Below, piece after piece: positions 34,706 through 41,149 of a DNA stretch of 64,000 bases. Numbering within the stretch: the stretch's first letter is position 1; each line of letters begins with the position of its first letter. This stretch comes from Isurus oxyrinchus (taxonomy: Eukaryota). Below the pieces are notes generated by a model. The model was not told where the DNA came from and did no database searches. It saw only the letters and a list, made by a program, of their open reading frames with translations. A program made the position numbers and the translations under genes. Location of the stretch: positions 496,001-560,000 of the forward strand of contig JANJGN010000088.1 of assembly GCA_026770705.1 (NCBI GenBank), in the 5' to 3' direction.

Positions 34706-35037
34706 CATCTAATGATTCAATCACCCATTTACATAATCCCTGTAAATGGATGGTTAAGACAACCAGAGGATTGTCATGGTTGCTATGAAATCTCGCTTTT
34801 TGTCGCAGATCACTAGAAAATGTGAACAAAATCTGACCTTGTTCAATAACTGAGAAAGAAATTATTTAAATTTAACCATCTGATCCTACAACAAACATCG
34901 TTCTCTCCAAACATCTGAAGTCCTGAGTTGGTTTTCAAACGTTTTTTGTGCTGCATTTGACCAAGTGTGAAACCTGTGTGAGACCCCAAGAAGGGTTCAT
35001 TGTATGTGGCAAAATGTCAATGTACTGATCCATTTTC

Positions 35038-35043
35038 AATAAA
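35038..35043 (+). terminator. Poly(A) signal of long secretory transcript
   Basis: AATAAA followed by GT-rich tract, about 330 nt after the stop. Confidence 0.75.
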
Positions 35044-36381
35044 CATAATGTGAAAAGGTTTCGGTTTTGAGTGTTCATTATTGTTGTGTTTCGGGAGACA
35101 GTAAATGAGTATCTTCGAACATGATGTGCGGTGAGTGTAACATGCTTGTGAGGAACAGGGGTCCTTGGACCTATGGTTTCCAATGCTCCCACCATTGGGC
35201 TTACCTTGCCTCCTGTCTGGGTTTATTGTGGACTAATTGATAAGAGACTGGTTGCTATGATTAGTGCACAACTCCATTATCCTTGTATCATCCGAACATC
35301 AGGATGGCTTTGGTCTTTCTTGGTTTACCAATTCCAATTTGCGCACAGTAATTCCCACCATAAGAACTGGGGTAATGACCAGATCATCTGGTTTTAGGTG
35401 TTTTGGTTGAGGGATAAATGTTGGCTGGCTCAGAACATTGCAGAGTACTCCCCTGCTCTTCTTCCAATTGTGCTGTGGGACCATTTACAAGTTTACATCA
35501 ACCTCAATACCATTGTTTAATGCCTTATTTGAAAGGCGGCACCTTCTGCAGTGCAGCACTTTCTCAGTCCTGCATTGGAGTGTCGGCCTGAATTATGCAC
35601 TCAAGTATCTGGAGTGGAACTTGAACCCACAATTTTCTGATCCAGGGGCGAGAGTGCGATGCACAAAACCACATCACGGTAATCCATGAATTGCAGACTT
35701 TCTGATCCCATTTGGTGTCTCACTCGCTCACATCACCACTCACAAGAATTTGTGCCATTGAGCAGTTGTTGTACCTGGTGACTACACAAGTTCATTTAAC
35801 GCTGCCTCAGGAACTGTTAGGTTGATTAAAATGTTATAGAAGCAGAGATTCAAAAAGAAGTAAATATTTGAAGTTACTAAGAATCTCACCCTGGCGATGG
35901 GGATAATCTCAGGGCGCTTCACAATCAATGGTTTGTTTGCGGATTAGAGTGTTTTTGGAGCCAAGGAGTCAGAAACTTGTGTTTGAGCTGGTAGGTTGGA
36001 TAATATGATAGAGAAATGGGGTGACTGAAGGACTGAGATTTTGGAAACAGTTTTAGCATCATCTGTTGTTTGTGCACATTTGAGGGAAACAGTAAGTGTT
36101 ACAGACAGAGATACTGAGAATGACAGTGAAGCAGAAACAAGGGGACAGAATCTCTGAGGGATAGAGGAAAGGCAGTGAGAGAGGGAGAAAGACAAAGACA
36201 AAGTGGGAGACAGGACCGGGGAGCAACAGGTCAAGAGAGAAAGACTTTTCAATTATTCACAGCTCCCAGTGCTCCTCCGCTGTGATCTCCTCCCTCGCTA
36301 TTATCTTCAAACTGAGACATTGTGGACCTTGATGAAATGCCCAGTGTCATCTTTATCAGCTCCAATTTCTCTTTGTTTCAG

Positions 36382-36524
36382 TTGACCTTCCAAATGTGAT
36401 AGGAGAGGAAGGAAAGGAAGAAGTGGAAGGTTTGGAAGGAGACGACAACGCACTGACAGTTGCTGCCTTTGCCATTCTGTTTATTCTAAGTTTCCTCTAC
36501 AGCACCTTTGTTACTGTTGTCAAG
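36382..36524 (+). CDS. IgW: IgW transmembrane exon TM1, copy 1 (DLPNVIGEEGKEEVEGLEGDDNALTVAAFAILFILSFLYSTFVTVVK)
   Basis: Acidic spacer, hydrophobic helix with antigen-receptor F..LF.LS..YST motif; TTTCAG acceptor, AAG|GTAACC donor. Confidence 0.93.
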
Positions 36525-36809
36525 GTAACCAGACTTTAACTATCAAATGAACAACGTACCCATACTGTAAAGTCACGATTTATCTTCAATTTATCGCCAC
36601 ATCTTATTATCTGACTCTGAGATTCCAGCTATCAGACTGGGTGCAGACGGACAGCACAGTGGGGAACCTTTCACAGCCACTGGCACCTTGAAGATTTTCT
36701 CTTTACCTGATCTGAGGGTCTTGATTCACCCCAGAAGAAGGGTCCTTTAGGCCCCATGTCCCAGAATACGGACAGGCCAACCTGTCCATAAGGCTCCATG
36801 GCCCAGAAT

Positions 36810-37265
36810 AAGAACATAAGAAATAGGAACAGGAGTAGACCATTCGGCCCATCGAACCTGCTGCGCCATTCAATAAGATCATGGCTGATCTTCTTGTGTT
36901 TCGATTTCCACATTCTGATCTAACCCCAATAACCTTTGATGCCCTTGCCTAACAAGAATCTATCTACTTCTGCCTTAAAAATATTCAATGGCCCCGCCTC
37001 CACCACCAACTGAGGCAGAGAATTCCAAAGTCGCACACCCATCCAAGAAAAAATTTCTCCTCATCTCTGCCCGAAAAGGTGGACCCCTAATGTTAAAACA
37101 GTGCCCCCCTGTTCAGGTCTCACCCACAAGAGGAAACATCCTTTCCACATGCACCTTGTCAAGGCTGTTCAGGATCTTGTATACTTCAATTAAATCACCC
37201 CTCACTCTTCTAAACTCCAGTGGAAACAAGCCCAGTCTGTCCAACCTTTCCCCGTAGGACAGCCC
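36810..37265 (-). mobile_element. CR1 LINE 3' fragment in TM1-TM2 intron of copy 1 only
   Basis: AAGAACATAAGAAATAGG tail and 3' UTR homologous to 44040-44500; absent from the second cassette. Confidence 0.8.
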
Positions 37266-38033: not shown

Positions 38034-39802
38034 CCAGCAGATACATGCGGCTCACATTCAGACTTATACAAGATGTGAATTGTCCAGAGATATCCCTGTG
38101 ATGTTGGGAGTGAAGCTTTCCATCACACACTGGAAAATACCCAGCTACTGCACTGCAACAGCTCATTCTGGGAGATAAAACTTCAAAAGGACTGGGGAAG
38201 ATTGGGAAGGGGAATTGGGATGGGAGGGACGCATTAGGAAGGTGAGAGGTGTGTGGGAATGGGGAGCAGGGGAGATGGGAATGGGAGAGTCAGGAAGGGG
38301 GAGTCAGGAGAGAGTGTGGATATGGGAAGGAGGGATGGGCTGATTCTCTGGGTCTTGAGCAAAATATTCTCAAAGCAAATGTTCAGATTACTGCCTGCAA
38401 CTTTTTCAAAAGTGTTTCGTATGTGGCAAAATGTCAATGTACTGATCCAATTTCAATAAACATAATGTGAAAAGGTTTCGGTTTTGAGTGTTCATTATTG
38501 TTGTGTTTCGGGAGACAGTAAATGAGTATCTTCGGACATGATGTGCGGTGAGTGTAACATGCTTGTGAGGAACAGGGGTCCTTGGACCTATGGTTTCCAA
38601 TGCTCCCACCATTGGGCTTACCTCGCCTCCTGTCTGGGTTTATTGTGGACTAATTGATAAGAGACTGGTTGCTATGATTAGTGCACAACTCCATTATCCT
38701 TGTATCATCCGAACATCAGGATGGCTTTGGTCTTTCTTGGTTTACCAGTTCCAATTTGTGCACAGTAATTCCCACCATACGAACTGTGATAATGACCAGA
38801 TCATCTGGTTTTAGGTGTTTTGGTTGAGGGATAAATGTTGGCTGGCTCAGAACATTGCAGAGTACTCCCCTGCTCTTCTTCCAATTGTGCTGTGGGACCA
38901 TTTACAAGTTCACATCAACCTGAGGGCCATCGTTTAATGCCTCATTTGAAAGGCGGCACCTCCTGCACAGCAGCACTTTCTCAGTACTGCATTGGAGTGT
39001 CGGCCTGAATTATGCACTCAAGTATCTGGAGTGGAACTTGAACCCACAATTTTCTGATCCGGGGTGAGATTGCGATGCACAAAACCACATCACAGTAATC
39101 CATGAATCGCAGACTTTCTGATCCCATTTGGTGCCTCACTCGCTCACATCACCACTCACAAGAATTTGTGCCATTGAGCAGTTGTTGTACCTGGTGACTA
39201 CACAAGTTCATTTAATGCTGCCTCAGGAACTATTAGATTGATTAAAATGTTATAGAAGCAGAGATTCAAAAAGAAATAAATATTTGAAGTCATTAAAAAT
39301 CTCACCCTGGCGATGGGGATAATCTCAGGGCGCTTCACAATCAATGGTTTGTTTGCGGATTAGAGTGTTTTTGGAGTCAGGGAGTTGAAAACTTGTGTTT
39401 GAACTGGTAGATTGGATAATACGATAGAGAAATGAGGAAACAACTGGGGTGACTGAAGGACTGAGATTTTGGAAACAGTTTTAGCATCATCTGTTGTTTG
39501 TGCACATTTGAGAGAAACAGTAAGTGTTACAGACAGAGATACTGAGAGTGACAGTGAAGCAGAAACAAGGGGACAGAATCTCTGAGAGATAGAGGAAAGG
39601 CAGTGAGAGAGGGAGAAAGACAAAGTGGGAGACAGGACCAGAAGTGACAGGTCAAGAGAGAAAGACTTTTTAATTATTCACAGCTCCCAGTTCTCCTCCG
39701 CTGTGATCTCCTCCCTCGCTATTATCTTCAAACTGAGACATTGTGGACCTTGATGAAATGCCCAGTGTCATCTTTATCAGCTCCAATTTCTCTTTGTTTC
39801 AG

Positions 39803-39945
39803 TTGACCTTCCAAATATGATAGGAGAGGAAGGAAAGGAAGAAGTGGAAGGTTTGGAAGGAGACGACAACGCACTGACAGTTGCTGCCTTCGCCATTCTG
39901 TTTATTCTAAGTTTCCTCTACAGCACCTTTGTTACTGTTGTCAAG
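39803..39945 (+). CDS. IgW: IgW transmembrane exon TM1, copy 2
   Basis: Same as copy 1 except V to M in the spacer; intact splice sites. Confidence 0.92.
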
Positions 39946-40636
39946 GTAACCAGACTTTAACTATCAAATGAACAACAACGTACCCATACAGTAAAGTCAT
40001 GATTTATCTTCAATTTATCGCCACATCTTATTATCTGACTCTGAGATTCCAGCTACCAGACTGGGTGCAGACGGACAGCACAGTGGGCAACCTTTCACAG
40101 CCACTGGCACCTTGAAGATTTTCTCTTTACCTGATCTGAGGGTCTTGATTCACCCCAGAAGGTCAGATTCCCTGTCCTTTAGGCCCATGTCCCTGAACAG
40201 GGTCAGACAACCTGTCCTTAAGGCCCCATGTCCCAGAATCGGGTCAGACCACCTCTCCTTTTGCATCCACTGCCCAGAATTTAATTAGACCACTTGTCCT
40301 TTAGGCCCCTGTCTCCAAGAACAAGGGCAGTTTGTTCTGCTGGGTTACACGACATTTAACCTTGGGAAACACATGACAGTAACTGTGACCCTGAACAACA
40401 GAATCCTCAATGATCACGGTCTGGAGCGCAAAGAAGAATTCATTTTGCAGGCTTCGTCTCCCAGAATAAGGATAGACCCCTTTTGCTTTAGGGTCCATCC
40501 CCCAGAATAAGGACAAATCCCCTGTCATTCGGGGTCCATTTCCTAACAGACAGACAGACTACCTGGCTTTTTGGGTGATACCACCTGATATATGATTGGC
40601 ACACACATGTATCTTACTCCGCTGTTTATTTTAAAG

Positions 40637-40648
40637 ATTCAGCAGTGA
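40637..40648 (+). CDS. IgW: IgW TM2 exon copy 2 (IQQ*); poly(A) signal 41072-41077
   Basis: TTTTAAAG|ATT CAG CAG TGA at the position homologous to 38022. Confidence 0.68.
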   Translation: MQQ

Positions 40649-41149
40649 CCAGCAGGCACATGCAGCTCACATTCAGACTTATACAAGATGTGAATTGTCC
40701 AGAAATATCCCTGTGATGTTTGGGAATGGAGCTTTCCATCACACACTGGAAAATACTCAGCTACTGCACTGCAACAGCTCATTCTGGGAGATAAAACTTC
40801 AAATGGACTGGGGAAGATTGGGAAGGGGAATTGGGATGGGAGGGGTGAGTTTGGAAGGAGAGAGGGGAGCGGGAATAGGGAGCAGGGGAGATGGGAATGG
40901 GGGATTAGGGAAGGGGGAGTCAGGAGGGAGTCTGAGTATGGGAAGGAGGGAAGGGCTGATTCTCTGGGTTTTGTGTAAAGTATTCTTAACACAAATGTTG
41001 TTCAGATTACTGCCTGCAGCTTTTTCAAAAATGTTTTCACTGATATTAAAGATTTGTTTTGAAATTGACTCAATAAAAAATGAAAACATGAAATGAAATA
41101 AGTGGTTGTGTGAAGAGATGGATAGAACTGAGGGAGAATGAGTGTGCTC

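Follow-up and report, generated by a model that had tools for sequence, protein, structure and literature searches.

The stretch of Isurus oxyrinchus DNA analysed here (the window: 64,000 nucleotides, positions 496,001 to 560,000 of contig JANJGN010000088.1, forward strand) is identified by its sequence as a shark IgW heavy-chain cluster. A six-frame scan of the plus strand gives a minicluster of one V, three D and one J segment with 12/23 recombination signal sequences (RSS) and ten constant-region (CH) exons, followed by a cassette of two transmembrane exons (TM1 and TM2) that is present twice. The first copy probably ends at a poly(A) signal borrowed from the secretory 3' end, and the second is likely to be a redundant spare. 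Five clusters were rebuilt on this contig, A (the window), B, C, D and E; their cassettes are written A1, A2 and so on, and the exons of the two copies TM1a, TM2a, TM1b and TM2b. The following features make up the doubled region.

35002..38418, + strand: TM cassette copy 1 (self-BLAST)
35038..35043, + strand: secretory poly(A) signal with GU-rich downstream element, the only canonical hexamer within 500 nt after the secretory stop
36382..36524, + strand: TM1 exon copy 1, ancestral protein sequence, open, with AG/GT ends
about 36808..37268, - strand: broken 3' fragment of a long interspersed nuclear element (LINE), antisense, inside a 41-bp minisatellite
37677..37846, no strand: 170-bp segment found only in copy 1 (of clusters A, B and C)
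38022..38033, + strand: TM2 coding part copy 1 (VQQ, stop), ancestral acceptor TATATTACAG/G
38418..38419, no strand: duplication junction, common to clusters A, B and C
38419..41036, + strand: TM cassette copy 2 (self-BLAST)
38455..38460, + strand: copied secretory-type AATAAA, the first canonical signal after the copy 1 stop
39803..39945, + strand: TM1 exon copy 2 (V5M), open, with AG/GT ends
40637..40648, + strand: TM2 coding part copy 2 (IQQ, stop), derived acceptor TATTTTAAAG/A
41045..41077, + strand: ancestral membrane-form signals (ATTAAA at 41045, AATAAA at 41072), which also follow the single cassettes of D and E

Self-BLAST aligns 35002-36809 with 38419-40239 at 94.7% identity and 37839-38417 with 40457-41036 at 89.0%. 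The repetition of 35002-38418 from 38419, described in an earlier note made from the letters alone, is therefore real, and the second copy runs to 41036. The two TM1 exons differ by a valine/methionine replacement and one silent change. The predicted cytoplasmic tails are KVQQ in copy 1 and KIQQ in copy 2, as that note had read them, and the two cassette proteins of clusters A and B differ at only two conservative residues. The same note described both TM1 exons as intact with a V/M difference; both are open with AG/GT ends, but the V/M difference is confined to A and B, and copy 2 of cluster C carries a glycine-to-arginine replacement instead. A homology-driven origin of the junction is unsupported, as it lacks clear homology (13/36 letters identical in register).

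The LINE fragment, which we take to be CR1-like from its motif, is found in copy 1 of A, B and C and in the single cassette of E (97% identity), and is absent from copy 2 and from D. The LINE difference between the copies reported earlier is real, but it was not produced by an insertion following the duplication, because the single-cassette cluster E carries the element too. In the TM1-TM2 intron of E, an expansion of about 700 bp in the 41-bp minisatellite precedes the LINE fragment. Both the array and the LINE are missing from D and copy 2, possibly by deletion between repeat units.

RNA and DNA contigs of two organisms, labelled organism A and organism B, were compared with the locus. Six of the 16 listed runs were aligned (X1, X2, X3, X4, X9 and X10); runs were taken as RNA from their spliced joints, and as contigs they carry no levels, strands or true ends. 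X1, X4 and X9 (organism A, two studies; X1 and X4 bear one sample label), together with X10, were aligned to 37800-41150, and RNA pieces were assigned to paralogues by counting differences from each. The matches suggest that organism A belongs to the same species as the window, or to one very near it.

Canonical AATAAA hexamers stand at 35038, 38455 and 41072, and ATTAAA at 41045. The duplicated unit takes in the AATAAA at 35038, beginning 36 nt before it, and stops just short of the pair at 41045/41072; copy 1 is therefore without the membrane signals and has acquired the secretory one, at 38455. Among the hexamer variants listed, only GATAAA at 38174 lies between the copy 1 stop and 38455, and it is shared by the other cassettes displayed. 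The stop of copy 1 is 422 nt from 38455, the ancestral stop-to-signal distance being 424; measured from a shared anchor, the distances are 71 nt and 69 nt, so that the length of the 3' untranslated region (UTR) is kept within 2 nt. The chance of such a coincidence is about 1% (5/424, by our own post hoc arithmetic). Both breakpoints (38418/38419 and 41036) lie about 35 nt upstream of their AATAAA, with no clear homology. The sequence downstream of the secretory signal is richer in G/T than that downstream of the membrane signal (76% versus 60%).

In organism B, a related species, an RNA contig (X3 r18) aligns to 34525-35058 with 22 letters left over, ending 15 nt past the hexamer at 35038, and another (X3 r21) aligns to 40640-41093 with 19 letters left over, ending 16 nt past that at 41072. 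These ends, which as contig ends are not proof of true ends, support 35038 as the secretory and 41072 as the membrane signal. Together with the hexamer positions they bear out the earlier assignment of a duplicate secretory signal to copy 1 and of the original TM signal to copy 2.

A search with the junction returned three occurrences on this contig, at 100%, 100% and 96% identity (three of the five IgW clusters), and a search with TM1 returned eight copies, two each in A, B and C and one each in D and E. Cluster B is an inverted copy of A, 730 kb away and 99.3-99.7% identical over at least 74 kb (contig 1245189-1319400 against the window plus 17 kb upstream); judged by its sequence, it may be a recent segmental duplicate or a retained second haplotype. 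Cluster C is independent and about 97% identical to A. In a tree of the 3' halves, all copy 1s form one clade (100/100) and all copy 2s another (100/99), and therefore one duplication event preceded the split of A and C. Divergence in the 3' part is 10-12% between copy 1 and any of the other cassettes, against 4.7-6% for D, E and copy 2 compared mutually; the 5' parts of all cassettes are 2-4% apart, and their tree does not resolve the origin of the copies (root support 33/8). Either an old duplication plus conversion or derivation of the copy 1 3' half from a diverged cluster now lost could account for this. A DNA contig of organism B (X10 r9) belongs to the copy-1 lineage, with 5 substitutions and 4 gap letters from A1 against 20-24 substitutions from A2, D and E. 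The lineage therefore predates the split of organisms A and B.

Splicing of copy 1 is seen directly in RNA. One piece of organism A (X4 r17) joins the end of TM1 to TM2 with 0 differences from A1/B1. Another (X1 r1) is assigned to C1: its three differences equal C1's own count, two of them at listed C1 sites, and 9 letters at its 5' end are unaligned. A third (X4 r19) is of copy-1 type by its letters at 38110 and 38113. Two pieces match cluster D (X1 r7 and r8) and two match cluster E by difference count (X4 r18 and X9 r24). Thus the seven TM2-bearing RNA pieces of organism A comprise three of copy-1 type (two spliced), four of the single-cassette D/E type and none of copy-2 type, a count in which contigs can hide rare forms. 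At the TM1 site 39817 all depth is G, and none is the Met allele of A2/B2; C2 is indistinguishable at this site. The proposal of the earlier note that two membrane termini stand under different 3'-end control is not borne out by this pattern, in which the contigs of the two organism A studies show copy-1 TM2 spliced in RNA, copy 2 in 0/7 pieces and no Met allele at 39817.

The piece X1 r2, on 38417-38470, looks as if it covered the junction but was set aside: the 58 letters that it has outside this stretch fail to carry on along copy 1, and it is read as secretory 3' UTR. X9 r24 (39768-39943), of E type, has TM1 and TM2 spliced and keeps 35 nt of intron upstream of TM1, and is likely a part-processed pre-mRNA. 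Splicing of TM1a to TM1b would shift the frame to KLTFQI and a stop; none was seen.

The coding changes point in the same direction. Over the eight cassettes there are six: copy 2 has three replacements and no silent change, and the other cassettes have no replacement and three silent changes (Fisher one-sided p=0.05). The replacements are V>M in A2/B2, G>R in C2 and V>I in all copy 2s; the silent changes are one in A1/B1/E, one in D and one in E. The glycine replaced in C2 is invariant in 9/9 homologues, and KVQQ is kept in the Chiloscyllium and Mustelus models. The TM2 acceptor of copy 2 carries three derived changes, from CAG/G to AAG/A, CAG being the stronger acceptor of the two. In copy 1 both the acceptor and the protein are still ancestral, amid flanks that have diverged by 10%. 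The intactness of TM1b was rejected as proof of function, as in a neutral simulation the open reading frame and splice dinucleotides stay intact in 38-73% of runs at 1.6-5% divergence. Copy 2 is thus likely a redundant spare under relaxed constraint, judging from its substitutions.

The route by which membrane transcripts reach TM1 bears on both poly(A) regions. The position homologous to what we take to be the internal donor of IgM reads CACA/GCAAAC (34643-34649), GC and not GT, in all five clusters; a GC donor there would be in frame with TM1, and all CH donors give in-frame joins to TM1. In six of seven annotated TM isoforms of homologues, a C4-type domain is joined directly to TM1 (gene models, not all cDNA); five of the seven end in KVQQ and the others, from rays, in KAQQ or KVLQ. 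An RNA piece starting at 39800 (X1 r4, depth 3.4) fits, by inference, an upstream exon ending in CAG like CH4 or CH6. According to reviews, membrane IgW with 2 or 4 C domains arises by alternative splicing (PMC4279169, PMC5192425). Membrane forms would therefore splice from an upstream C4-type exon to TM1, skipping the last two CH exons.

On balance we favour, as a probable account, an old tandem duplication after which copy 1 has been spliced into membrane-IgW RNA, likely ending at the borrowed signal 38455, and copy 2 has likely become a redundant spare that few transcripts reach. The shared junction, the splicing of TM1 and TM2 of copy 1 and the coding-change pattern are observed; cleavage at 38455 is suggested by its being the first canonical signal after the copy 1 stop. 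One old event would have doubled the cassette, now common to three IgW clusters. The decision between secreted and membrane forms would be a choice of 3' acceptor, and a poly(A) signal, whatever its origin, would be used when it closes the spliced terminal exon. If signal use is set by the terminal exon, transcripts would pass over this sequence at 35038 but end at it at 38455, and only a few would extend into copy 2. Since membrane forms of IgW skip the secretory exon, the borrowed signal is likely to have been tolerated. Conversion or unequal exchange between clusters has likely homogenised the 5' halves of all the cassettes, a process which the 3' half of copy 1, pinned by the junction, would have escaped.

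Several points weigh against this account. Among the contigs listed for X1, X4, X9 and X10 (66% of X10 being covered), no piece spans 38418/38419, and no RNA piece ends near 38475. The copy-1 RNA comes from one sample label only (that of X1 and X4), possibly not independent of the assembled animal, and rare forms may be hidden in contigs. The coding test was set up once the changes had been seen, and these number six. An AAG acceptor can be functional, there are CAG alternatives 6 and 9 nt further downstream, and copy 2 is open in all three clusters.

Among the alternatives, an assembly artefact or two alleles joined in tandem is very improbable. It could draw on cluster B, which is 99.3-99.7% identical, inverted, 730 kb away and possibly a second haplotype. 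Yet the same junction, 4% diverged, is present in cluster C; B holds both copies in the same order, so that a reading of B as the other allele would put the tandem on both alleles; the copies are 10% apart in the 3' part, far above the A-B divergence; and copy-1-type sequence occurs in RNA and in the DNA of another organism. The junction is neither an assembly error, which the earlier note had also argued, nor a join of two alleles, a possibility which that note had raised and which these comparisons largely rule out.

Regulated use of both cassettes is a more serious candidate, though we hold it unlikely. The signal at 38455 could be weak in resting B cells, with read-through to copy 2 (CH to TM1b to TM2b, or TM1a to TM2b), and secreting cells could cleave copy 1 at 38455. 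The cassette would then switch with B-cell state, copy 2 serving resting cells and copy 1 activated or secreting ones, and surface IgW would be kept on plasma cells; if the signal is under the control of differentiation, this would add a third outcome to the classic choice between secreted and membrane forms. The duplication itself amounts to a natural poly(A)-swap experiment, with a membrane Ig exon closed by the secretory 3' end. In mammalian IgM the proximal secretory site is the weaker one, and raised CSTF2 promotes it (PMC7356254), which favours such a scheme, as do the open copy 2 in 3/3 clusters with its ancestral signals kept and the apparent age of the junction, judged by the copy-1-lineage piece X10 r9 in organism B. 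However, copy-2-type TM2 is absent from the seven RNA pieces although D- and E-type membrane transcripts came from the same runs, and replacements and acceptor decay are confined to copy 2. The secretory signal also has the richer downstream element, and tails vary among rays (KAQQ, KVLQ), so two such proteins would hardly differ. Less probable still is a selected gain, in which the stronger secretory 3' end on TM2 raised membrane-IgW mRNA and favoured spread to three clusters, with copy 2 as a passenger. The ancestral acceptor and protein of copy 1 amid diverged flanks, the signal within 2 nt of its ancestral position and the doubled form in three of five clusters are in line with it. Against it, A and B are nearly identical over at least 74 kb, so that independent descendants number two at most; the doubled clusters have ten CH exons in common as well and so spread as whole clusters; and contigs give no expression level.

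The remainder of the cluster is arranged as follows.

6759..9235, + strand: IgW leader, VH-type V, D and J (six-frame scan; alignment to Mustelus P0006)
6916-7212, + strand: V exon, RSS at 7213, V 63% identical to Mustelus P0006
about 7629, 8356 and 8772, + strand: three D segments
about 9188-9235, + strand: single J segment
18364..34705, + strand: ten CH exons (C1-set), with the C3-C4-type pair in three copies
34323-34705, + strand: last CH exon, running into the secretory tail ...KPTLVNVSLVLTEGFKSCS and the secretory stop at 34705

The leader, V, CH1-CH4 and TM are collinear with the Mustelus P0006 heavy chain at 53-94% identity, and the final two CH exons are 65-76% identical to a sawfish protein. 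TM1 shares 73% identity with a sawfish protein that bears the name 'igW transmembrane form' and 87% with a Mustelus heavy chain; the eight TM1 matches on this contig stand at 98-100% against 57-60% for 13 others, and the TM is thus of IgW type, distinct from that of IgM. V is of VH type and not VNAR: the best 60 PDB matches listed are VH, VHH or scFv constructs, none named VNAR. By sequence class, V and CH1 would be of the light-chain-pairing type.

Further regions of the contig with IgW clusters lie at 0.65-0.69, 0.94-0.98, 1.09-1.12 and 1.26-1.30 Mb. Clusters A, B and C have 10 CH exons each, outside the range of 6-8 given in reviews, E has 8 and D has 6, the number varying between clusters via duplication of the C3-C4 pair (window 24660-32200). 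Predicted proteins of other elasmobranchs also exceed 8 C domains (P0004, P0008, P0009), and therefore 6-8 CH exons are not family-defining. The sawfish model P0009 has more C3-C4 pairs and a TM downstream of the secretory tail, like the coelacanth IgW1 layout, and is possibly a fused gene model. Clusters A and B have lost the AG of the CH7 acceptor (CCCAGAAAT to CCCAAAAT, window about 31487) and carry AAC/GT in place of AAG/GT at the CH8 donor (window about 32200), both sites being intact in C; with CH7 skipped, the frame would be kept and the chain would have an odd number of domains. In cluster E the pattern used for J gave no match. Long minisatellite arrays (4453-6449, 11197-11541, 16158-18177 with a 69-bp unit, 41152-41900 with a 72-bp unit, and 58591-59397) occupy sites upstream of V, in the J-C intron and directly after the TM poly(A) site.

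The locus is of value mainly because it offers, as it stands, a test of how 3' ends are controlled in shark B cells. Near-identical poly(A) regions stand twice in one transcript, one to be passed over and one to be used, and sister clusters of ancestral layout serve as controls. With this arrangement the effect of signal strength can be told apart from control by exon definition in an unengineered locus. Should copy 2 be a spare, what is gained is description: TM-cassette duplication and a 10-CH form are added to known IgW plasticity. Among the papers listed by literature searches none was on a doubled Ig TM cassette, and the IgW review passages covered (PMC4279169, PMC5192425) make no mention of one; primary IgW splicing papers may already describe TM variants. 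Nor do the literature passages covered address the choice between secreted and membrane Ig in sharks.

The IgW clusters of nurse shark, dogfish and skate have the same V-D-J-C minicluster and make membrane IgW of 2 or 4 C domains (PMC4279169, PMC5192425); the present cluster differs in its 10 CH exons, against 6-8 in reviews, and in having the TM1-TM2 cassette doubled, with a copied secretory 3' end closing the first of the pair. In teleost membrane IgM, Cmu3 is spliced to TM1 and Cmu4 with its secretory tail is skipped, with no internal donor (PMC7287348), and the same is inferred for IgW here; unlike this locus, teleosts have a single TM1-TM2 pair with its own signal. The mammalian IgM switch (CstF-64) likewise has a proximal secretory and a distal membrane poly(A) site on one transcript (PMC7356254). 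However, mammals use a cryptic GT donor inside Cmu4 (PMC7287348) where all five clusters here have GC, and at this locus a membrane exon is closed by a second secretory-type site. IgW and IgD often show tandem exon duplication. Local duplication with homogenisation by gene conversion is described for coelacanth IgW1, sturgeon IgD and shark UrIg2 (PMC5192425, PMC12227049), and the C3-C4 pair here is alike. In those systems C-domain exons are duplicated, whereas at this locus the duplicated unit is the TM cassette together with a secretory poly(A) signal.

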